Origin: Candidatus Fimivivens sp.
Lineage (GTDB): Bacteria > Patescibacteriota > Minisyncoccia > Moranbacterales > UBA1568
NCBI GenBank assembly: GCA_035560715.1
Contig: DATMYW010000034.1
Span: 16,439 to 80,438, forward strand
Direction of reading: 5' to 3'
DNA: 64,000 nt
The notes below the pieces were generated by a model. The model was not told the DNA's origin. It did no database searches and saw only the letters and a list, made by a program, of their open reading frames with translations. Shown here piece after piece: positions 2,591 to 59,650 of the stretch (position 1 is its first letter; each line of letters starts with the position of its first letter). A program made the position numbers and the translations under genes.

Positions 2591-2806
2591 TCATCGCCAG
2601 CCTTTTTGGCGGGCGACTTTCAGGCGGGGTCGTGTGCTCCGTTTCGGTCCCTTCGCAAGTCTTTTGGGACTTGGAAAACGTCGTGAGGAACCGCCATTTC
2701 TTATTTCTTTGGGCGGAACAAGGAATGGACGTCTCGCGATGGGGAGAAGAGAGAAAGCGAGCAGGTAGCCGGCATCTGTCAGGTCAAAATTCATGAAATG
2801 TGACAT
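2591..2806 (-). CDS. Possible small basic protein of 71 aa with a K/R-rich C-terminus
   Basis: It is the only ORF in a 470-nt region that is otherwise non-coding. It is preceded on the minus strand by a strong Shine-Dalgarno sequence, GGAGGA-5nt-ATG (plus coordinates 2812-2817). It has no recognisable domain. Confidence 0.25.
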   Translation of the reverse strand: MSHFMNFDLTDAGYLLAFSLLPIARRPFLVPPKEIRNGGSSRRFPSPKRLAKGPKRSTRPRLKVARQKGWR

Positions 2807-2892
2807 GGCGGTCCTCCATGGATTCGTTTGTAAGGTACCTGCTCATGGTGCCTGCAAACAGGCGGAAAGTCAAAATGAAGTATCGCGCGGAG

Positions 2893-2921
2893 TTGACACA
2901 TTATAAATAGTAGTATAGAAT
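2893..2921 (+). promoter_or_regulatory. Sigma70-like promoter TTGACA-17nt-TAGAAT upstream of the 2977 ORF
   Basis: TTGACA is at 2893-2898 and TAGAAT at 2916-2921, with an exact 17-nt AT-rich spacer. The downstream gene starts at 2977. Confidence 0.4.
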
Positions 2922-2976
2922 GGCATATTCTCGGTGCTAGGTCTTTCAAAATTCTCAATCCAAATATTCGTATCCC

Positions 2977-3330
2977 ATGTTAGCAAATGTCAATCATCCC
3001 ACAGAAGAATCCGAAACCGTCAAAAAGAAGGAGCACGTAAGGGTGCGATTCATGTACGTCGACTCCGTTCAGGTCGCCAAAGTCAGCGTCGAAAATTCTC
3101 CGAGACGTGACGGCGCATTGTTGTTCAAGGTTTGGACACTTGTCAACGAGCATCTGATAACGGCGGGATGTTCGAAAATACCACTCGAACATTTCGATCA
3201 GATCGCAAGGGAGAGCGGTTATACGATGTATGAGTTCGCGCTTCGGAGAAATAAGGTCCCCAAAACCTTCCGTGATAATGCGGAATTCACCATCAATCTC
3301 GTAGCGCACCCAAAGAGAATAATCTACTGA
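2977..3330 (+). CDS. Hypothetical protein, 117 aa, no recognisable domain
   Basis: The ORF is bracketed by a promoter-like element upstream and a strong hairpin terminator immediately downstream. Its GC content is somewhat lower than that of neighbouring genes. Confidence 0.4.
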   Translation: MLANVNHPTEESETVKKKEHVRVRFMYVDSVQVAKVSVENSPRRDGALLFKVWTLVNEHLITAGCSKIPLEHFDQIARESGYTMYEFALRRNKVPKTFRDNAEFTINLVAHPKRIIY

Positions 3331-4697: not shown

Positions 4698-5639
4698 ATG
4701 GAAGATCAGAAACATTTTTTGTCGGTCGTCGTGCCGCTCTATAACGAGGAAGGGAACGTGAAGGAGCTTCACGCGCGGATCAAGAAGTCGGTCGAGCGTA
4801 TCGGCGACCCGTACGAGATCCTCTTTGTCGACGATGGATCGACCGACGGAACGCTCGCGGATTGCGAGGGACTTTCACCGCTCACGTTGATACGGTTTCG
4901 CAAGAATTTCGGGCAGACAGCCGCGTTCGACGCCGGCATCAAGCAGGCGAAGGGTGACATCGTAATCACTATGGATGGCGACCTGCAGAACGATCCGGAC
5001 GACATCGCGTCACTTGTCGGAAAGATGGACGAAGGGTATGACGTCGTATCCGGCTGGCGTTTCGAGCGCAAGGATCCGATCATGAAGAAAATCTTCTCGC
5101 GTACCGCGAACCTGTTGCGCGGATTTCTCGTCAAGGACGGCATCCACGACTCCGGCTGCAGTCTCAAGGCGTACCGGAGGGAGTGCTTCGAGGGGGTGGA
5201 AATGTTCGGCGAGATGCACCGGTTCATTCCGGCGATGCTTATGATGGACGGATTCCGCGTAGCCGAAGTCAAGGTGTCGCATCATCCGCGGGTACATGGG
5301 AAGACGAAATACAACTGGAAGCGCGGTATCAAGGGGTTTGTCGACATGCTCGCGTTGTGGTTCTGGCGAAACTACTCATACCGGTCGCTCCACCTGTTCG
5401 GCGGGACCGGACTCGTGTCCGTGGCGTTCGGGTCGCTTATCCTGATGTGGATGTTCATCGAAAAGGTCTTCTATGCGGCGTCACTTTCGGAGAGGATATG
5501 GCCGCTTGTCGGGACGCTTCTCATTCTTGTCGGTGTCCAATTGTTCGTCTTCGGAATACTCGTGGATATTTCGGTGAAGATCTATTATCGACAGCGCAAC
5601 CGGATGAACTACTCGGTCAGGGAGGTTATCAATTCATAG
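4698..5639 (+). CDS. GT2 polyprenyl-phosphate sugar transferase with two C-terminal TM helices (GtrB/ArnC-like)
   Basis: LSVVVPLYNEEGN, then FVDDGSTDGT, then DGDLQNDP, plus C-terminal hydrophobic helices. The start is taken at Met21 of the track ORF (MEDQKHFLSVVVP). Confidence 0.8.
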   Translation: MEDQKHFLSVVVPLYNEEGNVKELHARIKKSVERIGDPYEILFVDDGSTDGTLADCEGLSPLTLIRFRKNFGQTAAFDAGIKQAKGDIVITMDGDLQNDPDDIASLVGKMDEGYDVVSGWRFERKDPIMKKIFSRTANLLRGFLVKDGIHDSGCSLKAYRRECFEGVEMFGEMHRFIPAMLMMDGFRVAEVKVSHHPRVHGKTKYNWKRGIKGFVDMLALWFWRNYSYRSLHLFGGTGLVSVAFGSLILMWMFIEKVFYAASLSERIWPLVGTLLILVGVQLFVFGILVDISVKIYYRQRNRMNYSVREVINS

Positions 5640-8639: not shown

Positions 8640-9008
8640 ATGAAGAACTATGACTCGTGGATGAAGGGATTCATGGAGGGATGGAAGAACCGGGATGTCG
8701 AGGCGGTCATGGCGACGATCGCCGGGAACTGCGCCTATTATGAGACTGTTTTCGACGAACCGTGTCCGGATATCGATGCTATTCGCGGACTCTGGAAAGT
8801 TGTTCCGGAGAATCAGAAAGACATAGAGTATTCATACGAGATTCTTGCGGAGAACGAGGAATACGGTATCTTTCATTTCCAGCTGGCAAGAACGGTTCTG
8901 CCCGAGGGGAACCGGGTGGAGATGGACGGCATCTTCCAGATATCCGTTGATGAGGCGGGGCGGTGCATCTATTTCAGGCAATGGCGTTCCGTTCGGGAAA
9001 TCCGATAA
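8640..9008 (+). CDS. Small SnoaL/NTF2-like fold protein
   Basis: The 122-aa product has the W/D pattern typical of NTF2-like proteins. The start is taken at MKNYDSW, residue 53 of the track ORF. Confidence 0.4.
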   Translation: MKNYDSWMKGFMEGWKNRDVEAVMATIAGNCAYYETVFDEPCPDIDAIRGLWKVVPENQKDIEYSYEILAENEEYGIFHFQLARTVLPEGNRVEMDGIFQISVDEAGRCIYFRQWRSVREIR

Positions 9009-9206
9009 TATTCCGCGAATGAAAATGAACGGAAACCCCTGGCAGACCCCGGGCTATTTTCTGTTTACCGAGATTTGTTTGAATGTGTAGAACATGAAAC
9101 GGCTCGAGCAGCCGATCATCCGTTAGAGACTTTCTCTGTGGGATGAGACTTCGAAAAACATGCACATCCCATTCAGGTTCTGAGACAAAAGCATGAGGCA
9201 TCCGGA

Positions 9207-9246
9207 GTTACATCTGATACGCTGTCGCATATCAGATGTAACTTTA
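9207..9246 (+). terminator. Perfect 13-bp inverted repeat hairpin with TTTAT tail between convergent genes
   Basis: GTTACATCTGATA, then a 10-nt loop, then TATCAGATGTAAC, followed by TTTAT. It lies 25 nt from the trpB stop and about 200 nt after the + strand gene. Confidence 0.4.
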
Positions 9247-9270: not shown

Positions 9271-10500
9271 TCAGTTCAGGTTCATCCGATCGGCGACGTA
9301 GTCGATGTCCTTATCTCCACGACCCGAGAGATTGACGAGGAGTATCGCGTCCTTGTCCATGTCCGGAGCGATCTTGATCGCATGGGCGACGGCGTGAGCG
9401 CTTTCAAGGGCGGGGATGATGCCTTCCGTCTTCGAAAGGACGGAGAACGCCTCGAGCGCTTCCTTGTCGTTTGCGGTCGCATAGGTGACGCGGCCGGTAT
9501 CCTTGAGATGGGCGTGCTCGGGTCCGACGCCCGGGTAGTCGAGTCCGGAGGCGACGGAATGGACCGGGTCCGGCACGCCATTGTCATCTTGGAGCAGGTA
9601 CGTGAACATGCCATGGATGGCGCCCGGCTTGCCGAATGTCAGTGTCGCGGCATGATCGCCCTTTTTAAAGCTTCTGCCGGCCGGCTCGACGCCGATCATG
9701 TCGACGGCGTCATTCAGGAATGCGCTGAAAAGGCCTAGGGCGTTCGACCCGCCGCCGACACAGGCTACAAGCACATCCGGGAGTCTTCCCTCGCGTTCGA
9801 GTATCTGCCGACGCGCTTCTTCGCCGACTATCGACTGGAAGTCGCGCACCATCATCGGGTACGGATGCGGTCCGACGACGGAACCGATTCCGAAGAACGT
9901 GTGATCGTGATCGGCAATGAACGCCCCAAAGGCACTATCGACGGCGTCTTTGAGGCACCGTCCGCCGGATCCGACCGCTACGACGTTCGCGCCGAGCATA
10001 CGCATGCGTAGCACGTTCGGATGCTGCTTTTCGATGTCGATCGCACCCATATGGATCTCACACTCGAGACCGACGAGTGCGGCCGCGGTCGCAAGAGCGA
10101 CACCGTGTTGGCCGGCGCCGGTTTCAGCGAGAAGTTTCGTCTTCCCCATCCGTTTCGCGAGGAGCGCCTCGCCGAGCGTGTGATTGATCTTGTGTGCCCC
10201 GGTATGGTTCAGATCTTCACGTTTCAGATAGATTTTGGCACCTCCGAGCTTTTCCGTCAGACGCTTCGCGAAGAATATCGGGGAGGGGCGTCCGACATAC
10301 TCCGCGAGAAGACGTCGGTATTCGTCCATGAAGGCTGGGTCTTTGCGCGCCTCCTCGTATGCGCCGGTAACTTCGTCGAGCACCGGACCGAGTTCAGGCG
10401 GTACGAGGCGTCCTCCGTATTCGCCGAAATAGCCTTGGTTGTCGGGAAGTTTTCCGAGTACCGTTATGACCGTTTTGCCGGAAAATAATGAAGGGGTCAT
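9271..10500 (-). CDS. trpB: Tryptophan synthase beta chain
   Basis: [37 protein letters not shown] and the rest of the PLP-fold core. The start is taken at MTPSLFSG, Met46 of the track ORF. No trpA is adjacent. Confidence 0.9.
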
Positions 10501-10639
10501 AGGGATTGAATGTGAATGATAGAAGTGACATCCGCGAGGGCTTCGCGGATCAAACGTATGTGCGTCGCCAGGAAAAGGTCGAGGCGCCCCGGAAAAGGAA
10601 GTGATCGTTCGAAGACATAGGATGGGGAATGACACATTG

Positions 10640-10667
10640 AAAAACCGCCTGTTACGGAACAGGCGGT
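10640..10667 (-). terminator. Intrinsic terminator of the trpB leader: attenuator segments 3 and 4 followed by UUUUU
   Basis: On the minus strand, ACCGCCTGTT, then a CCGT loop, then AACAGGCGGT, then TTTTTC. The stem is a perfect 10 bp. Confidence 0.7.
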
Positions 10668-10692
10668 TCGGGTACGAAGGGTCACACGAAAA

Positions 10693-10734
10693 TCACCGCC
10701 TGTTCTGAGAGGCGGTCCACCACGCGAGCTGCAT
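10693..10734 (-). CDS. trp leader peptide, 13 aa, MQLAWWTASQNRR, with tandem Trp codons
   Basis: Minus strand: ATG CAG CTC GCG TGG TGG ACC GCC TCT CAG AAC AGG CGG TGA. The TGG TGG pair is at 10717-10722. The stop codon lies at the 3' end of attenuator segment 2. Confidence 0.6.
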   Translation of the reverse strand: MQLAWWTASQNRR

Positions 10735-10767
10735 CGATCGGTTCGGTGTGATGTGCATATCGTCCAC

Positions 10768-10796
10768 AGTATAGGTATGTGTGTCGAGGCTGTCAA
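10768..10796 (-). promoter_or_regulatory. Consensus sigma70 promoter TTGACA-17nt-TATACT driving the trp leader and trpB
   Basis: On the minus strand, TTGACA is at 10791-10796 and TATACT at 10768-10773, with an exact 17-nt spacer. It sits between the upstream gene stop (10823) and the leader ATG (10734). Confidence 0.6.
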
Positions 10797-10822
10797 ACGG
10801 ATGCCGTCTCCTGACGCGAAGT

Positions 10823-11425
10823 TCAGTCGAGGAATGACAGAATTATATCGGAAAGGGAGCTGTTTTCGAATATTCCCGAAGGTATGACCGGGTTATCGCC
10901 GAACTCGTCATGTCTGATGCCTGAAAGCATGACGGTCCGCAGCCCCGATGATTTCCGAGAAAACATTTCGGAAACTGAACGGAAGAAATTTCCGAAGCGG
11001 TCTGCTGTCGACCGGATATCGATGACATCACCCGGAGTATCGGGTGTCCGAAAGACGCCGCATAGGGATATCACCCTGAGCGGCAGAATCGTGCGACCTG
11101 CGGCGAGAAGCGCGATCAGGGTACCAATACTGCAGGATATGACGGATACGACTCCTTCGGTTGTGATCAGATCCGAAAGTCTTTTCGATGCCAGGTGGAG
11201 GGATTTCGATGTCACGCTCCCGTTCCATTCGAAGCGGATGACCTCGTAGCCGCGCTGCCGCAAGGCGGGTATCCATGCTTCCTCCGAACCGGAGTAATCG
11301 GGGATGACGTTGAACAGTCCGTAGAGTCGCACGATGCCTTTCTGGACGAAGGGATTCGACGACCTGAGATACCTCGCGCCGGGAACGACGACGATGACGC
11401 GTCGTTGATCGCTCATAGTCCCCAT
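10823..11425 (-). CDS. Alpha/beta-hydrolase fold protein, esterase/lipase-like
   Basis: A strand-turn-helix around SCSIG, a GxSxG-like nucleophile elbow, and secondary-structure periodicity typical of small alpha/beta hydrolases. Confidence 0.5.
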   Translation of the reverse strand: MGTMSDQRRVIVVVPGARYLRSSNPFVQKGIVRLYGLFNVIPDYSGSEEAWIPALRQRGYEVIRFEWNGSVTSKSLHLASKRLSDLITTEGVVSVISCSIGTLIALLAAGRTILPLRVISLCGVFRTPDTPGDVIDIRSTADRFGNFFRSVSEMFSRKSSGLRTVMLSGIRHDEFGDNPVIPSGIFENSSLSDIILSFLD

Positions 11426-13358: not shown

Positions 13359-15101
13359 TTATCGGTTCAGCCTGTTCCACGTAGGCAGGGCGAGTATGTG
13401 CTTCATCTCCTCGGTCGTTTCCATGGAATCTTCCGATTGTCTCTCCTGGGTCACGAAGAGCGGGTTCGGTTTGAAGAAATGTACCGTCAATGAGCCGAAT
13501 TCACGCTTCCCTAAAGGTATGAAATGGACGTTCGCCCTGGGTGTTTTTCCGGTCTGGAGGACGATGAAATAGTTTCCTTCGCGATACAGCGGCGAATCAT
13601 GAGGTTCCGAGAAGTAGCGTATGCCGAGTCGCGACAGGTGATACCAGAAAGCCGGCTCGAACTCCGCGACTGAGGAAAGGTATACCGGATAGCCGTTTTC
13701 ACTGGCGATCGAGGAGATGTAGACCGCGATACGTTCCTGTTGCGATAGGGTGATGCGTGAGGTATTCGGAAACACGTCTTCCGTTTCAAGCGGAGAGGAC
13801 GATGTCGAGTCGTCTTGGAGTCGATCGAAAACGGAAATGATTCCCGATATATTCGAGCCGATAAGCATGCCCGAAAAAAGAACGATCAGGACGAGACCGG
13901 CGGGTGAGTTTCGGAACGGCCTGTGCGATCGGATGGCGTCGAGAATGAGTCCGAAGAGCAGGAACGGTAGAGGGGAGACGAGCAGGAAAAACCGCGGATA
14001 GATACGATAGGTCCGGGCGAGTGAGAAGTAGTACGAAAAAGAAACGACGAACCACAATGAAAGGATGAGAATGACGTCCTTTTTCTTATCCTTCCGCTCC
14101 CGGAGAAGTCCGATGAGAAGCGTAGCGGCACCTGCCGTGAAAAAGACGATCGCTGACAGGTTCACGAACAGTTCCGAGAGCGTACGATGCCGCATCAAAG
14201 CGTCAAGAGTGACCACTTTTCGAGCATTGATTTCACCGAGTCCCGAAAGGAGGAAAAAATACGACGTTATATGGTGGTGTGCGTCGTCGATAAGTGCGGC
14301 AGTGGAATCGGCGGCGCCTCCTCCGATCGTTGACTTGGCGAACTTATTTACAAAAAATCCGACGTTTTCTCCATGTGTCACGATATCACTCGCAATCATA
14401 GGGGAATAGACGATCGCTACGAGGATGAGTGCCGCGATCCAGGTCCTGAGAGGAAAACGGGGACGTTTGACGAGTAAAAAAATGACGATCACTGCCGGTA
14501 CCGTAAAAAAGGCGTTGAAGTGAATCTGCGTGACGGCAGCGCCCGACAGGGCGGCGATCAGAAACCAGCGGTTCCGATGTCGTTCGCTCTCGTCTACGCA
14601 TCTCAGGATGGCATAGAAGCAACCGAGGACGAGAAACGGCAGGACGTTCGGGCTCCAGGAGAAGCGAGCATACGAGACCGTATACAGTGACGTCGCGAAC
14701 AGAGCGGTGACGGACAGGGAGACCGTCTTCGACAGCACCCTTCTGGAGAAAAAATAAACGAGGGGAATAGTGAGGATTGACGACACGAGGACGACCATGG
14801 CGTGGCCGGTCGGCGTATTGCCGAACACCAGGGCCGAGAGATATTGAGCATAATAGAAAATCGGGCCGAGACGGAGCGCCCGCCCGCCGCCCGCGGTCGG
14901 ACCCAGGAGCGGGAGGTTTCCGGGTCCGTTCGTTACCGCCCCGGAGACGATGTTGAAATCGTATGTCTGGTCGATCTCGAAATGAAGCCAATCATGGAAA
15001 CGATAGGCTCGCAAAGTCACTCCTATGCAGAGAATCATGAACAGCGCCAGGAGTTCCCACTTTCTGGATCGGGTCATCACGCTGATCTCGCGAAGATTCA
15101 T
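13359..15101 (-). CDS. GT-C-like polytopic membrane glycosyltransferase, paralogue 1 of 5
   Basis: Shares the N-terminal blocks LRAYRFHDWLHFEIDQTYD, then LGPIFYYAQY, with four other genes in the window. It is 580 aa with about 12 TM segments. Confidence 0.65.
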   Translation of the reverse strand: MNLREISVMTRSRKWELLALFMILCIGVTLRAYRFHDWLHFEIDQTYDFNIVSGAVTNGPGNLPLLGPTAGGGRALRLGPIFYYAQYLSALVFGNTPTGHAMVVLVSSILTIPLVYFFSRRVLSKTVSLSVTALFATSLYTVSYARFSWSPNVLPFLVLGCFYAILRCVDESERHRNRWFLIAALSGAAVTQIHFNAFFTVPAVIVIFLLVKRPRFPLRTWIAALILVAIVYSPMIASDIVTHGENVGFFVNKFAKSTIGGGAADSTAALIDDAHHHITSYFFLLSGLGEINARKVVTLDALMRHRTLSELFVNLSAIVFFTAGAATLLIGLLRERKDKKKDVILILSLWFVVSFSYYFSLARTYRIYPRFFLLVSPLPFLLFGLILDAIRSHRPFRNSPAGLVLIVLFSGMLIGSNISGIISVFDRLQDDSTSSSPLETEDVFPNTSRITLSQQERIAVYISSIASENGYPVYLSSVAEFEPAFWYHLSRLGIRYFSEPHDSPLYREGNYFIVLQTGKTPRANVHFIPLGKREFGSLTVHFFKPNPLFVTQERQSEDSMETTEEMKHILALPTWNRLNR

Positions 15102-15130
15102 ACGTCATCGATGAAGCGTGTACTGTCCGG

Positions 15131-16960
15131 TCAGCGGAGACTGGAGGCCGGAACTATCCGTACGTAATTGTCGTCCCGATCACCGATGACGATGACCTTT
15201 TCGGAATCGATGTCGCCATACAGCCTCCGAAAATCGATGATGTCGTTGACGGAGCCCGAAAGCTTCAATGATCGGGATTTCCGACCTGCCGAGACGACGA
15301 AATAGTCGAACGTTTTCCCCCGTATGTCCTTGACGGAGAAACCGATATTGCAGGTCCCGACGAACTCAGTGCACACCGCTCCCTTGTCTGACCAAACGAC
15401 GAGATCGTGCGCACCTGGCAGGGAGTTGAGGTACGCGGCCGCCTCATAGCTTCCGTCTCCCATATCCTTCGTGTTAAGGAGATAGCGATCGGGAAGCAGC
15501 GGCGAGGCGTAGGCGAAGAAAAACGGACGTATCCGGATCAACGAAACCGTCAGGACGGTGAATAGCAGCGCGGCGGTAACGAGTCGGACCGTGTGTTTGG
15601 GCCGTTTGACGAGGTGAAGCAGCCGTTCCGCTCCGATGGCCGCTATGACGAACGCGAGGGGATAGAGGATGATCTGATACCGGACGGTCGCGACGACTCC
15701 GTTCGCCGTCGATGCGGCATAGTAGAGCAGGATGAACAGCGCGAGATATATGACCATGTTCTTTTCTCGAATCGGCGATCCTTCTCGTCTGGTCGCTGAC
15801 ATGAGGCCGACGATGAAAAGGATCAGAATCAGTGGGTGCATACCGAAGATAAGACTGTATACGTCGGCGAGTACGGCGCCGGCGACTGCCATGAGCGGAC
15901 CCTCCGAGGCGACCCCGATCCCTTTCGGGGAGGAGAGAATCCCTTCGAAATCGAACGGCCGCATGCCGAGATACGTATCCGCGAATACGAACAGGATCAG
16001 ACTGAGAAATATCGACATGAGAATCGTAGCGAGCGCGCGGCGGAACCTGGAAAAAAAGTCGAACACGGGTACGAGCATCCTATTGGAGAGGAATAAGGTA
16101 TCGATCGCGACGAACAGCAGAAGTCCCGCGAAGGCGGGCCACGTCTTCTCGAACGCCTTGCTACCGAAGGTTCCTTCGAGAAGGACGTCCGGATGTTTCC
16201 AGGTAGCCGGATACAGCGTGTAAAACGTCAGGAGGGACACGGCCGCCAATACGAGGTAGTCCGTGAATGCCTTCTTAATGTACTCGCGAAGCGGCGGTTT
16301 TTCGTCGGAAAAGACGTATTCGAGGAAGGGGAGGGCGAGAAAGAAGACATACAATATGTTGGCGACGTACTTCGTGAGCAGCGAAAGACCGAGAAAGACG
16401 CCTGATGCGATCAGGTACCACGCTTTCGGTTGTTTGCGGTAGGCGAACATCGACAGGAGAGACAGAGGAAGGAAAATCCAGAGGAGCGAGTCGGGATTGA
16501 TAATCATCGCTATGCCGAGAAGAATCGGCGAGAGGCCGATCATGACTGAACTGATGAGCGCGACGGTTTTTCCGGCGATGCGTTTGAGAAAAAAATAGAA
16601 TGCCGGAAGCATAAAAATGCAGAACAGGAATATGGGAAGTCGGAACCAGAAATTGATCCCATCTATGTCCGAAAGGACGGCGTCGGTCTTTATTTCGCCA
16701 CGGACATGCTCGTACACCATCGGATCGTATCTGAGCAGACCGAATCCGGAGAGGAGCGCGACCGTGATGCCCGGCTTGTCATTGATGTCGGTCGAATTCC
16801 ATCGGTGTGCATCGATCGCTGACCAGAATTTTGAAATGCGGCCGTATGTCCAGTACGGCTCGTCGACGGCAGAATAGGTGCCCAGGCGCGTGAGACCGAG
16901 GAATAGGTCGACGCAGATGATGGCGGTCAGAATGACGACGGATCCGTATTTCTTTATCAT
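15131..16960 (-). CDS. GT-C family (ArnT/PMT, GT39/GT83-like) membrane glycosyltransferase
   Basis: 609 aa and polytopic. It has a DE motif in the first extracytoplasmic loop (AVDEPYWTYG), as in ArnT/PMT-type enzymes that use polyprenyl-phosphate sugar donors. Confidence 0.65.
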   Translation of the reverse strand: MIKKYGSVVILTAIICVDLFLGLTRLGTYSAVDEPYWTYGRISKFWSAIDAHRWNSTDINDKPGITVALLSGFGLLRYDPMVYEHVRGEIKTDAVLSDIDGINFWFRLPIFLFCIFMLPAFYFFLKRIAGKTVALISSVMIGLSPILLGIAMIINPDSLLWIFLPLSLLSMFAYRKQPKAWYLIASGVFLGLSLLTKYVANILYVFFLALPFLEYVFSDEKPPLREYIKKAFTDYLVLAAVSLLTFYTLYPATWKHPDVLLEGTFGSKAFEKTWPAFAGLLLFVAIDTLFLSNRMLVPVFDFFSRFRRALATILMSIFLSLILFVFADTYLGMRPFDFEGILSSPKGIGVASEGPLMAVAGAVLADVYSLIFGMHPLILILFIVGLMSATRREGSPIREKNMVIYLALFILLYYAASTANGVVATVRYQIILYPLAFVIAAIGAERLLHLVKRPKHTVRLVTAALLFTVLTVSLIRIRPFFFAYASPLLPDRYLLNTKDMGDGSYEAAAYLNSLPGAHDLVVWSDKGAVCTEFVGTCNIGFSVKDIRGKTFDYFVVSAGRKSRSLKLSGSVNDIIDFRRLYGDIDSEKVIVIGDRDDNYVRIVPASSLR

Positions 16961-17091
16961 AAGTTCCGATGAATTGTGCGAGAAGCTTATGGAAATCAGG
17001 CGGAGGAATTCAGGGCGATGATAGCACGAATGCAGGTCATTCGCAACCGTCCGGGATGCGGAACGATGCCTCGGATAAGGGTCTGAACCGG

Positions 17092-17120
17092 TTTACAGGG
17101 TGTTCGCACCGAGGTATACT
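17092..17120 (+). promoter_or_regulatory. Sigma70-like promoter TTTACA-17nt-TATACT for the five-gene membrane glycosyltransferase operon
   Basis: TTTACA is at 17092-17097 and TATACT at 17115-17120, with an exact 17-nt spacer, 60 nt upstream of the 17182 start. The -10 hexamer is the same as in the trpB promoter. Confidence 0.45.
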
Positions 17121-17181
17121 GTCGTCGTGTCCGACACCGGCCTGGTCACATGTCTTTAGCCAATATGATAGCTCACTCGCC

Positions 17182-18945
17182 ATGAAGAAAAACATCATCG
17201 GCTGGAGCGGATTCGTGCTGCTCCTCATCATCACGGCCTCGATTTTCGTACGTGCGTACCGGTTCGACGACTGGCTTTATTTCAAGATGGACCAGTCCAG
17301 GGACGCATTCATGATAACCAACGCCGTCGAGAACGGTCCGCAGTACCTGCCGCTCCTGGGCGCCCGTGCAGGCGCGGTGAAACTCGATCACGGCTTTCTC
17401 CGTCTTGGACCTATCTTCTATTACTTCCAGTACCTTTCCGGCGTCATTTTCCACTCAACGCAGCCGTACGTGTACGCGTATCCCGACCTTTTCTTTTCGG
17501 TGCTCGCGATACCGATGCTCTACCTTCTGGTCAGGCGGTTTTTTTCGAAGCGAAATTCGCTGTTCATCGTGGCGATGTACGCGTTCTCATTCATCATAAT
17601 CCAGTATTCCCGCTTCGCATGGAATCCGAATTCACTGCAGTTCTTTCAACTCGTCAGTTTTTACGGATTGCTGCGATTCCTGAACGAACCCGTTGAAAAG
17701 CGGAAGAAGTGGTGGCTCGCGATGTGGGCGACCGGAATGACGATCGGCTCGCAGCTGCATTTCTTCGGATTTTTCAGTTTGGTGGGTATCTCGGGACTGG
17801 TCGTCCTGGCGCATTTCCGGATGTGGGAGAGTCGTCAATGGGCCGCCGTTATGAAGCGTGACGTGTTGCGAACGATCTTCCGTCATGTCGGCACCGCGGC
17901 ACTCGTCTTTTTTGTCTTCTACGCACCGGTTTTTATCAGCGACGTCTACAGGGGTGGTGAGAATACGCGCAATTTCTTCGAGGCGATCGGTTCCAAACCC
18001 GCTGACAAGCCGCTTAGCCAGAAATTGATCAAGGATATCACCGAAAACGTGAAGTACTACTGTCTTATCACGACCTCGCAGTGTTATGATGGCGGTGTCA
18101 GGAAGCACATTCCTGCCATAGTGGCGACGGCACTTATAATGCTGTCGGGTGTCATGCTGGTCATCCGTGGCCTTCTGAGTAGGACACTCGATCGATCAAA
18201 GCGAGATTTTCTGTTTCTGCTTGTCGCCTGGGTGACCGTCTTTACGGTCCTGACGATTCCGGTATCGTTTCAGTTGCGGCCGAGGTTCTTTATCGTCGTC
18301 TTCGCGATTCCGTTCATTTCGGTCGCCCTCCTGTTCGAATATCTAGAGGAAAAAGTGAAACCGGGACAGGCGCTCGCGTTCGCGTTTCTGGTGACGGCCG
18401 GAATCATCGCATGGAATACGACTGGCACGTATGCCTGGTTCAGGGAGCAGGCGGAGTCCCAGAATCACGCATTCGACGTGCAGCGGACGCTTATTCTCAA
18501 GGTCAAGGACGGCGTTACGCTCGGTGAACTGCAGGGAGTCACCGATTGGATGTATGAGAGGCATCGTTCCGGAGCGGCGCTGTATTACTATGTGAAACCG
18601 GAGCATGTCAGGCCTGTCGATTATCTTCTGTATCTCAAGCATGATTCCGAACTCCGTTACGCCACCATGTCGGAGAAGAGCGAACCCGAAGCACAGTTTT
18701 TCGCGATTACCCCGGCTGACAGCGGCATCGATGCCGCACGCAAGAAATTCGGAGATTCCCTGACGGTCGTCGATTCGGCCCAGTTCGGACAGTTGGTCGT
18801 TTCCGAACTCGATTATCCGGGCCGTTCGGCGACCGGAGATCGCCGATTCAACCGGACCGATGGGAAGTCGGACCGCGTGTTCTGGAAAGACGTATTCGGA
18901 GTGACCGACACTGACAGCGCCATACGGATAGATGCCTCGGAGTGA
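17182..18945 (+). CDS. GT-C-like polytopic membrane glycosyltransferase, paralogue 2 of 5
   Basis: VRAYRFDDWLYFKMDQSRD, then LGPIFYYFQY, then AYPDLFFSVLAIPMLY, then YSRFAWNPNSL. The start is taken at MKKNIIG, Met72 of the track ORF. Confidence 0.7.
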   Translation: MKKNIIGWSGFVLLLIITASIFVRAYRFDDWLYFKMDQSRDAFMITNAVENGPQYLPLLGARAGAVKLDHGFLRLGPIFYYFQYLSGVIFHSTQPYVYAYPDLFFSVLAIPMLYLLVRRFFSKRNSLFIVAMYAFSFIIIQYSRFAWNPNSLQFFQLVSFYGLLRFLNEPVEKRKKWWLAMWATGMTIGSQLHFFGFFSLVGISGLVVLAHFRMWESRQWAAVMKRDVLRTIFRHVGTAALVFFVFYAPVFISDVYRGGENTRNFFEAIGSKPADKPLSQKLIKDITENVKYYCLITTSQCYDGGVRKHIPAIVATALIMLSGVMLVIRGLLSRTLDRSKRDFLFLLVAWVTVFTVLTIPVSFQLRPRFFIVVFAIPFISVALLFEYLEEKVKPGQALAFAFLVTAGIIAWNTTGTYAWFREQAESQNHAFDVQRTLILKVKDGVTLGELQGVTDWMYERHRSGAALYYYVKPEHVRPVDYLLYLKHDSELRYATMSEKSEPEAQFFAITPADSGIDAARKKFGDSLTVVDSAQFGQLVVSELDYPGRSATGDRRFNRTDGKSDRVFWKDVFGVTDTDSAIRIDASE

Positions 18946-21152
18946 TCGTAATCGGACGAAAATTCATCTTATTCAATCACATGCGGGAGCTGATACGGAA
19001 AAGCGGCAGTTACCTAAGAAGGCATCACATACTCGCCGCTTTCGTGGCGTATGCCGCCTTGGCGCTTGTCTTTACGTACCCGTTGGTCTTCAACCTGACA
19101 TCGGTGATTCCGAAGGGAGGGCGGGACTCATTCCTGGTGATCGCGACTATAGAGCGGCTGTCGGATATCGTGAGGGAGCAGGGGTGGCGAAACGGTTTCA
19201 TCACCCTTGCGAAGACATACCAGTTGAACAGTTATCTTCCTTATGTCGTCATCGGACAGTTCACGACCGCATACGGAGCGAATAACATCCTGTTTCTCGG
19301 GAGTTTCCTATTTTCTGCGATCGGGGCGTACATGCTTGCGTATCACCTTACGAAAAGCGGTCCCGGATCGTTTTTGGCAGGTCTCATTTTCGCGTTCTCC
19401 CCGTTTCATACCTATCAGTCGACGGCCATCCATGTCGGATCGATGCATCAGGAGCTGTTGCCATTTTTCGCGTTGTACCTGATGCGCTTTTTCGAGGGTT
19501 TCCGATTCAGGCACTTTGCCATCGTTTCCGTACTGGCCGCGCTTATCGCGCTGACCGAACATCAGTTGCTCGCGTTCACGGTGATCTTCACGGCTGGATT
19601 TCTCGCGTATGCCGTCGTCACAAACAGGCGTGTCATCAGGGACAAGAGATTCTGGGCGTATTTTTCGGTTTCCGGCGCGCTGCTCTTCGTCTTTGCTCTC
19701 GTCCTGTTCAAACCGCTGCTTTCCGTGACATTTTCCGGAAACAATTATCTCGATCCCGGCATCAAGAGTGTACGGAATCTGTCAGCGTACGCGGTCGATA
19801 CGGTCCTCCCTCCGCAGTTTCACGGCATCTGGCCGGGGCTCAACGAATTCCTGCAGGAAAATGTCTTCCATACGTCGCACAAAGGGGATTCGTACTATGT
19901 CGGTCCGACGGTCTTCCTACTGATCGGATATGTCCTGTTCCGTCTGTTCGGGTCGCGTCGTTTAGCTTCTGATGATGGCGGAATGCTCCGTTTTTGGATT
20001 ATCGTGACTCTCGGTTTTCTCGTATTGTCGTTCGGTCCGACGATGAGCCTGTATCGCTGGACGATCCCTCTTCCGTATTTCGTTATTTATAAACTCGTCC
20101 CGTTTTACTCGAATATCAGGACCGTCGGACGTTTTCTGGTATTCGCGATCCTGGGTGCCTCCGTTCTTTCCGCGTATGCCGTGGCCGATATCCGCCGGCG
20201 AAATGTATCGAAGAACGTCGCCCGTGTCGCGATGGTGTGCGCATGCGCACTGGTTCTTGTCGAATATTGGATCGCCCCGATCCGTACGACCGTTTTTACG
20301 CATTCACCGTTCTATGACCGAATCGCGGAAGACGGAGGGACATACAGACTGCTTGAGATTCCGGGCAGCACGAACGATGTCTTTTTCAACTACGAATGGA
20401 TCACCAGGAACGTCCATCACAAGGAATTGCTCAACGGAATGCCGATGGCACGTGAGATCGACGGTCAGTTCGACTTCCAAAAGAATACGCCAGTGGTTCG
20501 CGAACTGCTCTACTCGATCCCGAAGGGGAGCGACCCGCTGGGAAAGAGCCAGAACGATATTCTCCGGGGTTTCGAATGGGTGCAGGCTCCGGATATTCTC
20601 AATTATGCGGGCGTCGGATTCGTGACGGTAAGCAAGGAGTACACGTCCGCGGAAGTGCGGGACACCGTCGAGCGATTCATGAGAGCATACGTTCCTTCCG
20701 CGGAGCGGATTGAGGACGAATTCCTGATCGCATATGCGATACCGAGACTGGATCCGATGGGAATCTATGCCGTGTTCCGGATCGATGGCGGGGGATTTTC
20801 CGATGTCTTTCCCGCTACCGACGGTTCCATGCGACGGGAAATCGGCGACGGCGCACGACTGAACGTCGTAAACATGGAGTCGGTACCCAAGCGGGTAAAG
20901 ATCGTCGTCAGCGCCCAATCGGTCAGTGATATCGGCTTCGACGTCACGACTGATGGGATTGCGGGTACAAGACGGAATCAGGTAAGTCCTGATGCGGGGG
21001 AGTATCTTTTTGAGACGACGCTCCTTCCCGGAAACAATGAGCTCGTCTTCCATGTGACGGATCGGAACGGGAATCCCGTGGCCGTCCGAGAGAAAAAGAA
21101 GGATCGTTTCAGGGCACTTATCGTCAGTGCCGTTTCGATCGTGACGGAATAA
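18942..21152 (+). CDS. Large polytopic membrane protein of 736 aa, probably a GT-C-fold transferase from a different family than the paralogue set
   Basis: About 13 TM segments followed by a roughly 250-aa soluble C-terminal domain. It overlaps the upstream stop by 4 nt (GTG start). Confidence 0.6.
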   Translation: MIVIGRKFILFNHMRELIRKSGSYLRRHHILAAFVAYAALALVFTYPLVFNLTSVIPKGGRDSFLVIATIERLSDIVREQGWRNGFITLAKTYQLNSYLPYVVIGQFTTAYGANNILFLGSFLFSAIGAYMLAYHLTKSGPGSFLAGLIFAFSPFHTYQSTAIHVGSMHQELLPFFALYLMRFFEGFRFRHFAIVSVLAALIALTEHQLLAFTVIFTAGFLAYAVVTNRRVIRDKRFWAYFSVSGALLFVFALVLFKPLLSVTFSGNNYLDPGIKSVRNLSAYAVDTVLPPQFHGIWPGLNEFLQENVFHTSHKGDSYYVGPTVFLLIGYVLFRLFGSRRLASDDGGMLRFWIIVTLGFLVLSFGPTMSLYRWTIPLPYFVIYKLVPFYSNIRTVGRFLVFAILGASVLSAYAVADIRRRNVSKNVARVAMVCACALVLVEYWIAPIRTTVFTHSPFYDRIAEDGGTYRLLEIPGSTNDVFFNYEWITRNVHHKELLNGMPMAREIDGQFDFQKNTPVVRELLYSIPKGSDPLGKSQNDILRGFEWVQAPDILNYAGVGFVTVSKEYTSAEVRDTVERFMRAYVPSAERIEDEFLIAYAIPRLDPMGIYAVFRIDGGGFSDVFPATDGSMRREIGDGARLNVVNMESVPKRVKIVVSAQSVSDIGFDVTTDGIAGTRRNQVSPDAGEYLFETTLLPGNNELVFHVTDRNGNPVAVREKKKDRFRALIVSAVSIVTE

Positions 21153-21161
21153 CAGAAACGT

Positions 21162-22775
21162 ATGCGTTTACGGTTCCCGCCGATGAAGTTGAGGTCCGGG
21201 GAAGGGATGGCGCTTGCCGCGACTTTGGCGGCAGGCGTTTTCCTACGAGCATACCGCTTTCATGACTGGTTGCACTTCGGTTCCGACCAGTCGCGGGATG
21301 CCGTTATCGCGTCGGGCGCCGCGTCAGGGAATATCCCGTGGCCGTTGCTCGGTCCGGAGGCGGCACATACGGGTTTTCATCTCGGACCCGCCTACTATTA
21401 CTTCCAGATCGTATCAGCGAAACTGTTCGGTCGCGCTCCGGAGGTGTTCGCATATCCCGACCTGCTGTTTTCGGTTCTTTCGATCCCGCTCCTCTATGTG
21501 CTGCTCGCAAGGTTTGTACGACGTCCCATCGCGCTGTCACTCACGTTCGTATACGCCGTTTCCTCCTACTCTGTTTACTACTCGAGATTCGCGTGGAATA
21601 CGAACCCGATCCCATTCTTTTCGATGCTGTTCATCCTGTCTCTGTCGGAAATCCTGCATTTCGGCGGTCGATCGCGATGGATGTGGGTCATTTTGCTCGG
21701 AATATCCGTCGGGATCGGTGTGCAGCTGCACACGATGCTGCTGACGCTTTTCCCGATCGTCACGATCATGACCGCCGCCGTTGGCCTGCGATACGATTTT
21801 CGGGCCTGGAACCGCTGGCTTGCCGTACTGGCGATCGCGTTGTGTCTCAATGGGCCGCAGATCGTTGACGGCTTCGCTACGGGCTTCGCGAATACGCGTC
21901 AGTTCCTCTCCGTTTCTTCCGATAAGTCCGGCAGCGGGGCCTCTCGGCTGGTCCGGAATCTGGAAAACGCGGTGCTGTGTCATGCGGAGGCGAATGCGGT
22001 CATGCTTTCGGCGGTCGGAGAGAACGACAAATGCTCTTACATATCGCTGTGGAAGCATCCGTCGGTGTCCATGGCCAGGCTCGGCCGGAGACAGTTCGTT
22101 ACAAGGAGTCTGGGGTACGTTCTCAGTATGGCGTTTTCCGTCGCCGGGTACTGGTCGCTCGCGAGGCAATTCCGAAATGAGTCCGATCGACGGAAAAAGA
22201 TTCTGCTCGGTATCGTGCTCCTGTACGTCGTTCTCACTTTCGTGTTGTCGGTACCCGTTCTCTTCGATGCCCCGCTTCGGTACTTCCTGCATACGATATT
22301 CGTCCCGTTCCTGTTCGTCGCTCTGATGATCGAGCGGTATGGAACATCCGCTCGGGGACATCTCATTTCGGCCACCCTCGGTATCGCCGCGGTACTCGTG
22401 ACGACGAACCTATATGCACTCGGCTCGCAGGCGTCCCATCTCGCCGGCATGACCAGGGGAGACGATGGATTCGCGGTCCTCGATCAGGTTGAGTCTCTGG
22501 TACAGTTCGCCGTCAGCTCCTCGTCCGGCAATGAAGGGTACCTTCTCGGACGTCATACCTATTTCTCCGCGTACGCATCCCCACTTGCCTACGTGGCTTC
22601 TCTTCGCGGGTACGTCCTTCGCCGGGCGGAATCGATCGATGATGTCCCCACCGGTGCGGACGTATTCTATCTCTGGCGCCCCACTCCTCCGGATACGGAA
22701 AAAAGGTTCGACGGACGCGCGGTGGAGCGATCCGTCACGATCGGGAATCTCGAGTTTTACATGGTGAGAAAATAG
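21162..22775 (+). CDS. GT-C-like polytopic membrane glycosyltransferase, paralogue 3 of 5
   Basis: LRAYRFHDWLHFGSDQSRD, then LGPAYYYFQ, then AYPDLLFSVLSIPLLY, then YSRFAWNTNPIPF. Confidence 0.7.
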   Translation: MRLRFPPMKLRSGEGMALAATLAAGVFLRAYRFHDWLHFGSDQSRDAVIASGAASGNIPWPLLGPEAAHTGFHLGPAYYYFQIVSAKLFGRAPEVFAYPDLLFSVLSIPLLYVLLARFVRRPIALSLTFVYAVSSYSVYYSRFAWNTNPIPFFSMLFILSLSEILHFGGRSRWMWVILLGISVGIGVQLHTMLLTLFPIVTIMTAAVGLRYDFRAWNRWLAVLAIALCLNGPQIVDGFATGFANTRQFLSVSSDKSGSGASRLVRNLENAVLCHAEANAVMLSAVGENDKCSYISLWKHPSVSMARLGRRQFVTRSLGYVLSMAFSVAGYWSLARQFRNESDRRKKILLGIVLLYVVLTFVLSVPVLFDAPLRYFLHTIFVPFLFVALMIERYGTSARGHLISATLGIAAVLVTTNLYALGSQASHLAGMTRGDDGFAVLDQVESLVQFAVSSSSGNEGYLLGRHTYFSAYASPLAYVASLRGYVLRRAESIDDVPTGADVFYLWRPTPPDTEKRFDGRAVERSVTIGNLEFYMVRK

Positions 22776-22778
22776 CCT

Positions 22779-24362
22779 ATGCACGCAATTCTCCGACGAA
22801 TCGGAATCAAGAAAGCGGTGATCATTTCACTTGCGATCATCACGGTGCTCGGCCTGTCGATTCGGACGTATCGCTTTCACGATTGGCTCAGGTTCAATGC
22901 TGACCAATCCCGTGACGCCGGTATCGTGAGTGATGTCCTCGACGGGAAGATCGCGCTTCCGCTGTACGGTCCGAAGGCCGGAGGGACGGAGTTCCGACTC
23001 GGTCCGGCTTTCTATCACTTTGAGATCTTTTCCGCTTGGTTGTTCGGCAACCGGCCGGACGTGATGGCGTATCCCGACCTGTTTTTCTCGATCCTGACGA
23101 TTCCGCTCCTCTATATCTACCTTCGCAGGCGGTTCGGGATGCGGATATCGTTGTCGCTTACGTTTTTGTATGCGGTTTCCTTCTATACGGTCAAATATTC
23201 GCGATTCGCATGGAATCCGAACTCGCTTCCGTTCTGGTCGCTGTCGTTTTTGCTCGGATTTCAGAAACTGTCCGAGGGAGCGCCGTCCGGCGGGAAACGA
23301 TGGTGGTTCTGGCCAGCAGTGACGGGTGTCGCGCTCGGCGTGGTGGTCCAGCTTCATACCCTGGCACTGGTCGCGTTTCCCACGATGGCCGTCCTGTCGT
23401 TCGCCTACCTGGCGCTTATTCGGAAACGGGATATACGGAAGCCGCTCGCCGTGGTATTCCTGATCGCTGTCGCCTGGAATGCCACTCAGGCATACGGGGA
23501 ATTCCGGACCGGCGGTGAGAATACGCGCGCGTTCATGAGCGGAGTCGGTACGAAGGAGAAGAAAGGGAGCGGCATGGCGCGCAACGCCATTAAGGAGGCG
23601 GTCTGCTATACGGATGCGAACGTCTACGTGCTTTCTTCCCGAGACCGTTCCGATACGTGCGAGATCAAGGGTATCACGAAGGGATCCGGTGCGGTCGTAT
23701 CCTTGCTTGGGCTTATTTTCATGATCGGCGGAATCGCACACTCGATACGTTCCGTGCTGAGAGAGCGGGACGAGCGGCGCGCATTCTTCACGCTCCAATT
23801 CCTGTCCGTCATGACGCTGTTCGCGCTCACGCTGCTTCCGCTTGCCAACGAGATATCGATGCGCTTCTTCCTCGTCATGACGTTCATGCCGTTCGTCTTC
23901 CTGGGCATGTGGATCGAATTCCTCGCGGAGCGCTTGCCGAAGCCTGCGGCGATGATCATATCCGGCATCGTCATCGTGTCGCTCGTCATGATGAACGCCG
24001 TCTCGATCGGACGTTCGTTCGTCGAATATGCCGGATACGCGACCCTGTCGGGAGGTGGGATGGATAACGTGACACTGAAGGAAGTGGAACAAGCGTCGGC
24101 CTTTATCGTCGCGAATGCGGGGGATTCGGATTCCGCGTATCTCGTCGGCGATGCGAAATATCTTTTCAAGGCACAGAAGTCCATCGACTATCTGACCAGG
24201 CGGGTCGGCATCCGCGTCTTACAGCCCGGGAAAAAAACGACCGAAGGCGTTCCGGTCTTTCTGGTCGACAACAGCGACAAGGCCGATGAGATCCTGGCCG
24301 CCGGCCACGTCGAGGCGTACGGCGTACTCGGTCGATTCACGATATTCAAACGCGAACTATGA
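22779..24362 (+). CDS. GT-C-like polytopic membrane glycosyltransferase, paralogue 4 of 5
   Basis: IRTYRFHDWLRFNADQSRD, then LGPAFYHFE, then AYPDLFFSILTIPLLY, then YSRFAWNPNSLPF. Confidence 0.7.
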   Translation: MHAILRRIGIKKAVIISLAIITVLGLSIRTYRFHDWLRFNADQSRDAGIVSDVLDGKIALPLYGPKAGGTEFRLGPAFYHFEIFSAWLFGNRPDVMAYPDLFFSILTIPLLYIYLRRRFGMRISLSLTFLYAVSFYTVKYSRFAWNPNSLPFWSLSFLLGFQKLSEGAPSGGKRWWFWPAVTGVALGVVVQLHTLALVAFPTMAVLSFAYLALIRKRDIRKPLAVVFLIAVAWNATQAYGEFRTGGENTRAFMSGVGTKEKKGSGMARNAIKEAVCYTDANVYVLSSRDRSDTCEIKGITKGSGAVVSLLGLIFMIGGIAHSIRSVLRERDERRAFFTLQFLSVMTLFALTLLPLANEISMRFFLVMTFMPFVFLGMWIEFLAERLPKPAAMIISGIVIVSLVMMNAVSIGRSFVEYAGYATLSGGGMDNVTLKEVEQASAFIVANAGDSDSAYLVGDAKYLFKAQKSIDYLTRRVGIRVLQPGKKTTEGVPVFLVDNSDKADEILAAGHVEAYGVLGRFTIFKREL

Positions 24363-59098: not shown

Positions 59099-59650
59099 AT
59101 GAACGAACGAAAGCTCTTCTTGGGCATCCCGCTGTCACCGAAATCGAAGACGCGGATCGTGCAGTCGGTCGCCAAATGGGGCGATCTGCCGGTCTTCGCG
59201 GAGCGTCCCGAGAACCTTCACGTGACGGTGCTGTTTCTCGGGTTCGTGACCGACGAGCACGCGGTGTGGATCGCCGAAATCGCCGCGGATATCTGTTCGG
59301 AGCATGAACCGTTCGATCTGACATTCCGTACGGCGGTCACGGTTCCCGATGTCGGACCCGTGAAGATAATTCACCTCGTCGGGGACGAGAGCGAACCGCT
59401 TCTACGGCTTCAGAATGCGCTTGAGTGCGAACTGCTCGGCAAAAAGGCCGAGGGGAAATGCTTCCGTCCGCACGTGACGCTCGCACGGGTCAAGCGGCAC
59501 GAGTTCGCGTCCCTGTCGCCGGATCGCCTCCCGATATTCCCGCAGGACATTTCCATATCCGAACCGGTCATGTCGGTCGTACTTTATGAAAGCATCGGGA
59601 ACGGGGCGAAGAAACAGTACCTGCAGATGGACGAGTTTCCGCTCGGATAG
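59099..59650 (+). CDS. thpR: RNA 2',3'-cyclic phosphodiesterase (2H phosphoesterase, LigT/ThpR)
   Basis: Two H-x-T-x motifs, HVTVLF and HVTLAR, spaced as in LigT. Confidence 0.8.
   Translation: MNERKLFLGIPLSPKSKTRIVQSVAKWGDLPVFAERPENLHVTVLFLGFVTDEHAVWIAEIAADICSEHEPFDLTFRTAVTVPDVGPVKIIHLVGDESEPLLRLQNALECELLGKKAEGKCFRPHVTLARVKRHEFASLSPDRLPIFPQDISISEPVMSVVLYESIGNGAKKQYLQMDEFPLG

Follow-up and report, generated by a model that had tools for sequence, protein, structure and literature searches.

An orphan trpB gene on a contig assigned to Moranbacteria is preceded by a putative tryptophan-sensing leader attenuator

Members of the CPR/Patescibacteria are thought to import finished amino acids. Orphan trpB genes have been described in Mycoplasma californicum and M. 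bovigenitalium, and indole salvage was proposed for M. californicum and termed 'unusual in prokaryotes' (PMC4081997). Indole salvage was also proposed for the orphan TrpB of Cryptosporidium (PMC4777385), and in Chlamydia trachomatis indole rescue relies on trpRBA (PMC4042155). The trpB locus described here would share with these three systems a reduced metabolism in which the last pathway step is kept and external indole plus serine yields tryptophan. With Chlamydia it would also share the regulation of the genes by tryptophan, but Chlamydia has kept trpA and uses the TrpR repressor. No attenuator was described for Mycoplasma or Cryptosporidium (PMC4081997, PMC4777385), whereas the Patescibacteria case appears to be under leader-peptide control. 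For CPR, the literature yielded no more than a brief tally of trpA and trpB (PMC8672522), with no per-genome trpA/trpB table in its supplement. The literature search returned no combination of leader peptide, attenuation and CPR, and two papers on CPR metabolism are silent on tryptophan.

The gene was analyzed within a 64-kb stretch of DNA, referred to as the window; the coordinates of all features are collected in Table 1. The longest possible trpB ORF extends to 10635, and homologues have 397-410 aa, which places the start at 10500. The protein contains a PALP domain (Pfam) and scored 566.5 bits with the trpB equivalog model TIGR00263 of NCBIfam (cutoff 392.45), while the TrpB2-type models remained below cutoff (TIGR01415, 180.9 bits vs 518.85; PRK12391, 186.4 vs 366). 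As TIGR00263 was above and TIGR01415 far below its cutoff, the protein is a canonical TrpB1. The TrpB2 family depends on O-phosphoserine and is often stand-alone. Its members are, like the window gene, TrpB homologues that often lie apart from trp operons and have been connected with the scavenging of indole; the window protein differs from them in the TIGR01415 score (181 vs 519), in its TrpB1 catalytic Asp305 and in lacking the N-terminal extension. These scores and sequence features settle for TrpB1 the placement that the earlier note on this DNA had left to be checked. That note had also named disrupted catalytic Lys/PLP residues as counting against a functional TrpB. In the full alignment, which comprised E. 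coli TrpB and 84 further sequences, these residues were intact, the window protein retaining K87, E109-H115, D305, E350, S377 and the GGGSN loop. The nearest solved structure was that of LBCA-TrpB, a reconstructed ancestral enzyme (5EY5_B, 555 bits). Near relatives with 73-88% identity occurred in many Patescibacteria lineages, and the top relatives belonged to Moraniibacteriota, Magasanikbacteria, Gracilibacteria and other Patescibacteria. A Shine-Dalgarno sequence was absent before trpB. Genes of the CPR radiation mostly lack one, and in the window merely 7 of 45 genes have it, so its absence at trpB is nothing special.

Table 1. Position, strand and basis of the features in and around the trpB locus
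Feature	Coordinates	Strand	Basis
SnoaL_2 (NTF2-like) gene, convergent with trpB	8640-9008	(+)	Pfam
Perfect 14-bp inverted repeat (AGTTACATCTGATA...TATCAGATGTAACT) separating trpB from the convergent SnoaL-like gene	9206..9243	.	read from sequence
trpB, 409 aa, canonical TrpB1 type, orphan subclade	9271..10500	(-)	TIGR00263, PALP domain, catalytic residues, tree
uORF2, 22 residues, between terminator and trpB start	10550..10618	(-)	translation
Terminator 3:4 (AACCGCCTGTT / AACAGGCGGTT), then T-run TTTTT	10640..10668	(-)	nine-locus alignment; 11-bp stem
Antiterminator 2:3 (GAACAGGCGGT / ACCGCCTGTTC, 11 bp)	10657..10705	(-)	nine-locus covariation
Leader peptide ORF MHITPNRSMQLAWWTASQNRR*, 21 codons, tandem TGG TGG	10693..10758	(-)	translation
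Hairpin 1:2 (ACCGCCT / AGGCGGT)	10695..10716	(-)	terminator-like scan match and nine-locus alignment
Sigma-70-type promoter TTGACA-17 nt-TATACT	10768..10796	(-)	scan, 11/12 matches

The earlier note had claimed that neither trpA nor any other trp gene accompanies trpB in the 64 kb, and this was confirmed with two approaches. Pfam detected no Trp_syntA, IGPS, PRAI, Glycos_transf_3, GATase or Chorismate_bind in the ~55 ORFs covering the window, and tblastn searches of the window with E. coli K-12 TrpA, TrpCF, TrpGD and TrpE (E<=0.01) returned nothing besides trpB. The ~2.6 kb past the 3' end of the window (L215) contained zero trp genes. Statements on gene absence thus refer to the window and these ~2.6 kb, within a genome that is probably near 1 Mb. 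With this coverage, trpA could sit elsewhere in the genome, perhaps with the whole pathway, and the gene would then encode an ordinary half of a tryptophan synthase whose alpha-beta complex works on indole-3-glycerol phosphate. In some groundwater Patescibacteria MAGs trpA was counted in 15% and trpB in 18% (PMC8672522), and passages of PMC11917138 show that unlinked trpA and trpB occur naturally, for example in Pelodictyon luteolum. Literature abstracts, on the other hand, describe CPR genomes as generally short of amino-acid pathways.

On its 3' side trpB faces the gene that the earlier note had called NTF2-like, which Pfam identified as SnoaL_2. The perfect inverted repeat between the two genes is probably their shared transcription stop. 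On the other side, the note had described an NDT-like, HIT-like and alpha/beta-hydrolase operon, which held in part. The NDT-like gene was weak in Pfam (21.8 bits vs a cutoff of 28.8) and had DNPH1/Rcl matches (E=6.5e-6), which bore out its assignment; the HIT-like gene was borderline (21.3 bits vs a cutoff of 21.5 in Pfam; E=0.022 in PDB). The label 'alpha/beta hydrolase' for 10823-11425 was dropped, as it was unsupported by Pfam, NCBIfam and PDB sequence searches. Neither a transporter for indole nor a source of it was identified, a point against indole salvage. The remainder of the window consisted mostly of glycosyltransferases and a series of PMT_2-type membrane proteins, and also contained GroES, PriA, Fmt, GltX and RtcB.

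NCBI labels the exact TrpB protein 'Candidatus Fimivivens sp.', a genus of the Clostridia. Based on the TrpB relatives, on the synteny of the glycosyltransferase neighbourhood with a Moraniibacteriota MAG (L082) and on the 92% identity of GltX at the far end of the window to Candidatus Moranbacteria proteins, we assign the contig to Moranbacteria (CPR/Patescibacteria). The public 'Fimivivens' label seems to result from a mistake in binning or labelling.

A scan of genome contigs with the window protein yielded at least 80 loci from many phyla, in which canonical and orphan-clade sequences were both sampled. In an NJ tree of these loci, which were selected for similarity to the query, an orphan group of 27 sequences separated with a bootstrap of 90/100 and a core of 22 with 98/100, among the matches listed. 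Next to the window protein and other Patescibacteria, the group comprised Acinetobacter marinus, a Pseudomonas MAG, Chromatiaceae, Fermentibacteria, Saccharicrinis, Halanaerobiales, Kiritimatiellia and others. Among the matches listed, trpA adjoined trpB in 48 of the 58 canonical loci, and trp neighbours were found at 0 of the 27 orphan loci in fetched stretches of up to 10 kb (the part 3' of trpB measuring at least 1.3 kb in 23/27 and less than 1 kb in 4/27). This absence from the whole subclade speaks against the ordinary tryptophan synthase half.

The catalytic residues were the same in the orphan and the canonical group, and among the matches listed K87, E109, the Thr110-His115 loop, D305, S377 and GGGSN were invariant across the 27 orphan members. 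Helix 6 of the COMM domain read TLKDAxNEAxR[DY]W in canonical and LK[DE]AVDSAF[GE]x[FY] in orphan sequences. Among the matches listed, position 171 was D in 27/27 orphan vs N in 56/58 canonical sequences, R at position 175 occurred in 1/27 vs 58/58, and R141 was changed to K in 22/27 orphan sequences; D168 and W177 were also altered in the orphan group. The window protein has D171 and G175, and its helix-6 signature LKDAVDSAF was present in 118 of the 120 best-ranked closest database clusters. In E. coli tryptophan synthase, beta-Asn171, beta-Asp168 and beta-Arg175 contact the alpha subunit (PMC8187860). According to passages of PMC11917138, stand-alone activity of TrpB is governed by the 'Res6' positions, and TrpA-dependent enzymes mostly have Asn at the 282 equivalent. 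Among the matches listed, the 190 equivalent was S in 27/27 orphan sequences and the 282 equivalent was a hydrophobic M or F; two of the three checked Res6-equivalent sites (190, 282) resemble the stand-alone state. The rewritten TrpA-docking helix across the subclade fits function without an alpha subunit, and the subclade would accordingly be expected to work without TrpA. K167, the partner of alpha-Asp56, was kept in 25/27 orphan sequences among the matches listed, which is compatible with TrpA binding and with the ordinary synthase half. Against the latter stands the subclade-wide change of the alpha-docking helix, with R175 lost and N171 replaced by D, and we regard a TrpA-dependent enzyme as unlikely.

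The 322 nt between the end of the upstream gene (10823) and trpB hold a promoter, a leader ORF and four RNA segments. The ATG of the leader lies only 9 nt past the -10 hexamer of the TTGACA-17-TATACT promoter, and the leader mRNA would therefore be near-leaderless and without a Shine-Dalgarno sequence. The WW codons of the leader abut hairpin segment 1 directly, and its stop codon TGA lies immediately 3' of segment 2. Helix 2:3 is mutually exclusive with 1:2 and with 3:4, and its predicted energies across loci ranged from -11.6 to -19 kcal/mol. For the whole leader element the folding energy was -38.5 kcal/mol (z = -4.07 vs shuffles). At its thermodynamic minimum the leader has 1:4 nested around 2:3, not 1:2 plus 3:4, and the argument for a switch therefore rests on kinetic, co-transcriptional order. 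Rfam gave no gathering-threshold match in the window, including Trp_leader RF00513, and no leader family in 10450-10850 even at E<=10. The leader peptide had zero Pfam or NCBIfam matches.

The leader was compared across ten distinct related Patescibacteria-type contigs (13 loci, some from duplicate assemblies) that covered 0.7-10 kb on the 5' side of trpB and 3.5-10 kb on its 3' side. Each of the ten has trpB as a stand-alone gene. A leader ORF containing Trp codons was present in 10/10 loci, with WW in eight, W-Q-W in L003 and one Trp in L212. The same leader layout was found 5' of trpB in eight other Patescibacteria loci, despite differing upstream genes and a GC content of 33-58%. TTGAC-N17-TATAxT preceded the leader in most related loci, L214 having no recognisable match. 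The leader peptides of the related loci were MNSTVQTTKSIAWWTAS, MSNVPFRTSIIAWWTAS, MNQENAIITRSWWTAFYNRR, MIKQTLQLNSWWTAFDRQ, MTQTNLQLTSWWTAL, MNKIHLQLNAWWTAPNCGQ and, in L214, MSSWWAVWRCGQ, besides the single-Trp variant of L212; in six related loci the homologous short leader ORFs end in ..WWTA[SFLP]...

The helices were scored on an alignment of nine sequences, the window and eight loci. In helix 1:2, 93.7% of the cells were paired, with both-side changes in 3/7 pairs; the values were 94.4% and 7/11 for the antiterminator 2:3, and 97.1% and 3/8 for the terminator 3:4. The level of covariation in helix 2:3 was matched by 2 of 500 shuffles, and slid controls, in which the 3' partner was moved by one to three columns, were 30-60% paired. 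A covariance model built from this alignment gave one strong match per locus, each 5' of trpB, and none elsewhere in the window. Searched against 316 kb of CPR loci, it found the trpB leader copy only; no co-regulated partner was seen, a further point against an ordinary tryptophan synthase half. In a metagenome scan with a DNA pattern of WW plus hairpin, none of the matches listed (at least 120) was near trpB or leader-like, and they were rejected as leaders, being chance or coding.

Two ordinary terminators of the upstream operon next to a chance short ORF could mimic such an attenuator: hairpin 1:2 is followed by a U-rich stretch and was terminator-like in the scan, and Rfam had no match to the leader. 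However, the WW ORF, its register to segment 1, the promoter (in most loci) and helix 2:3 with its 7 compensatory pairs were kept in nine loci that differ in upstream genes and in GC. These comparative data contradict the chance-terminator reading, which we consider extremely improbable. The Trp-sensing attenuator that the earlier note had placed upstream of trpB is present and far from chance, as seen from the promoter, the WW leader, the three exclusive helices and their conservation. Its layout is the anatomy of classical leader-peptide attenuation, from which we infer the switching itself. The conserved Trp-codon attenuator with its compensatory pair changes argues for a functional, Trp-responsive trpB with tryptophan as the product. 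The view of the earlier note that the gene is functional and regulated rather than a relic is borne out by the intact TrpB1, by relatives kept at this level of identity (73-88%) and by the compensatory changes in the attenuator.

A second type of Trp-sensing device was found within the subclade. In five loci (Gracilibacteria L004, Fermentibacteria L011, Gastranaerophilales L061, and L012 and L214 from two other MAG lineages) a Trp_repressor-family gene lies directly 5' of trpB. L214 combines such a gene with a leader-peptide attenuator and carries a class-I Trp/Tyr-type tRNA synthetase gene 3' of trpB. As two unrelated devices, leader peptides and TrpR-family repressors, would thus tie the gene to tryptophan, the physiological product of the subclade is probably tryptophan. 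This bears on the reading of the protein as a TrpB-fold enzyme with another job, such as another beta-substitution with a nucleophile other than indole, the deamination of serine or the detoxification of indole. The catalytic promiscuity of TrpB enzymes, together with the engineered TrpB structures present in the PDB, was counted for a role outside tryptophan synthesis. The distinct subclade also occurs in organisms in which a canonical trpBA is probably present as well (Acinetobacter, Pseudomonas MAG), a pattern that invites neofunctionalisation. Beyond the two regulatory devices, the invariant indole- and serine-handling residues (E109, D305, K87, Q114 loop) and a score far over the TrpB equivalog cutoff oppose such a role, which we consider very unlikely.

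Between the terminator and trpB a second upstream ORF, uORF2, was found in 9/10 loci. Its conserved part is 13 residues long, is free of gaps and closes with an invariant Trp plus a residue that is basic or Gln (R in 7, H in 1, Q in 1); the motif reads [FYS]-[LI]-[YF]-[RHK]-[GN]-x-[SC]-T-x-x-W-R. The mean pairwise BLOSUM62 score was 2.22 in frame, and -0.03 and 0.8 when the alternative frames were read; the third codon position was the least conserved. uORF2 is conserved at the peptide level. It had zero Pfam/NCBIfam family matches, and in L003 it is joined in frame to trpB. Sequestration of the trpB start that would be opened by a ribosome in uORF2 was considered and is unsupported, because there was no consistent fold across the nine loci. 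uORF2 probably adds a layer of translational control, and a Trp-sensing layer in translation is the most attractive guess. With TnaC-type regulatory nascent peptides uORF2 shares a short conserved peptide, an invariant Trp and a position upstream of a Trp-metabolism gene; it differs in having no sequence similarity, in lacking the conserved Asp/Pro pattern and in the varying distance to the downstream start. The resemblance is only a lead.

From sequence and comparative evidence, we consider it likely that the locus encodes a TrpA-independent, Trp-regulated enzyme that makes tryptophan from serine and external indole under leader-peptide attenuation. TrpB would act without TrpA, join serine to indole from outside the cell and supply the cell with tryptophan. 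The strong promoter would drive the near-leaderless 21-codon leader, in which the tandem Trp codons abut segment 1. When charged tRNA-Trp is scarce, a ribosome would stall at the WW codons and cover segment 1, segment 2 would pair with segment 3 to form the antiterminator, and RNA polymerase would read through into trpB. When tryptophan is plentiful, the ribosome would reach the stop codon at segment 2, the 3:4 terminator would form ahead of the U-run and transcription would end. Located 3' of the terminator and containing a single Trp codon, uORF2 would probably act as the added translational layer. A wider proposal, which we regard as possible but rather doubtful, has two linked parts. The AVDSAF subclade would be a natural, horizontally mobile, TrpA-independent TrpB1 salvage module that is wired to Trp sensing differently by phylum, with attenuators in Patescibacteria and TrpR-family repressors elsewhere; and uORF2 would be an undescribed nascent peptide that senses Trp or tRNA-Trp in translation, giving a two-stage leader.

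The wide conservation of an orphan TrpB with apparently tight regulation by Trp suggests that some CPR use indole as a currency of cross-feeding instead of importing tryptophan ready-made, and this link could serve as a clue for co-culture media and for the prediction of hosts or partners. Textbook ribosome-coupled attenuation would also be recognisable in a deep and poorly studied radiation. To date, stand-alone TrpB biocatalysts have been obtained by directed evolution or by reconstructing ancestral sequences. A natural TrpB1 clade with a rewritten TrpA-docking helix would offer a comparison set for allostery and for such biocatalysts.

Among known enzyme systems, the closest are the natural and ancestral stand-alone TrpB1 proteins, such as plTrpB and LBCA-TrpB, a TrpB1 type whose activity in the absence of TrpA has been either suggested or demonstrated (passages of PMC11917138). 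As judged from these passages, the window protein shares with them the Ser at the 190 equivalent and the hydrophobic 282/283 interface pair, but it lacks the full Res6 set (A, R and S at positions one to three). The helix-6 rewrite AVDSAF was not found in the passages of PMC11917138. The same passages describe P. luteolum as still having trpA in the genome and plTrpB as binding it, which is a further difference. On the side of regulation, the locus shares with E. coli trpL a short leader peptide in which two Trp codons lie side by side, the 1:2, 2:3 and 3:4 segments, an intrinsic terminator before the structural gene and the proposed ribosome-stalling logic. It differs in that the leader of the Moranbacteria locus would be near-leaderless and without a Shine-Dalgarno sequence, in that uORF2 follows the terminator, and in the CPR host. 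It would furthermore control a single orphan trpB and not trpEDCBA, and it resembles no Rfam family in sequence or by covariance model. Taken together, the locus joins known chemistry to a known regulatory principle; what is new is the lineage, the distinct and seemingly TrpA-independent TrpB1 subclade, and the extra conserved uORF.

A second small ORF, uORF2, lies between the terminator of the tryptophan-codon attenuator and the start of trpB. Counterparts were found upstream of trpB in eight of the fetched loci with related trpB genes (L003, L082, L084, L085, L087, L210, L211 and L212), and in L003 the ORF is fused in frame with trpB. The conserved motif spans 13 residues without gaps and ends in an invariant Trp followed by a basic residue or Gln (Arg in seven cases, His in one and Gln in one). 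The conservation is at the peptide level, and no conserved RNA structure that could account for it was found in the nine loci. No match to a known family was obtained in Pfam or NCBIfam.

The start of the trp leader ORF is located 7-9 nt past the −10 hexamer, and the leader is therefore probably translated from a leaderless mRNA. Among all gene starts of the window, a Shine-Dalgarno-like motif was present at only ∼7 of 45 genes. On the 3′ side of trpB, a perfect inverted repeat with 14-bp arms and a 10-nt loop separates trpB from the convergent SnoaL-like gene. A clear T-run after this repeat was absent on the trpB strand; on the opposite strand it is followed by TTTATC.

The identical TrpB protein is labeled ‘Candidatus Fimivivens sp.’ (Clostridia) at NCBI. 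The window GltX showed 92% identity to Moranbacteria and, because GltX, the TrpB relatives and synteny all agree, the contig was assigned to Moranbacteria/Patescibacteria. The public MAG contig is probably mis-binned or mislabelled.

Six of the seven consecutive large membrane proteins in the window carry weak PMT/PMT_2 (GT-C mannosyltransferase-like) domains, while the remaining one (18981-21152) had no Pfam match. The array looks like a paralogous expansion, and its position beside trpB is conserved in the related loci L084 and L085. The surrounding 64 kb are very rich in glycosyltransferases. No tRNA genes were found in the 64 kb, despite the presence of two RNA ligase-type genes.

Features in the window and in related loci
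Locus	Feature	Coordinates	Strand
Window	Inverted repeat	9206-9243	
Window	uORF2	10550-10618	−
Window	Seven-gene membrane-protein array	13359-25999	
Window	RtcB RNA ligase	30540-32060	
Window	LigT-type 2′,5′ RNA ligase/phosphoesterase	59099-59650	
L004	Trp_repressor family (PF01371)	9611-9874	
L011	Trp_repressor family (PF01371)	9666-9971	
L012	Trp_repressor family (PF01371)	2744-3100	
L061	Trp_repressor family (PF01371)	5110-5439	
L214	Trp_repressor family (PF01371)	9473-9742	

In L040 (4537-9656), which belongs to an Izemoplasmatales MAG, a gene cluster ending with chorismate synthase (Pfam) precedes the trpB of the orphan subclade; the four genes ahead of chorismate synthase are putative shikimate/aromatic-pathway genes as judged by eye, and neither trpA nor trpC-E was found nearby. 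In L087/L088, L210, L213 and L214 an aminoacyl-tRNA synthetase gene is located immediately 3′ of the orphan trpB, of the class II tRNA-synt_2, tRNA-synt_2b or SerRS kind or of the class I W/Y type.

In several unrelated phyla, Trp_repressor-family genes lie directly upstream of orphan-subclade trpB. In L214, TrpR occurs together with a leader-peptide attenuator (MSSWWAVWRCGQ), and a tRNA synthetase gene of the W/Y type lies downstream.
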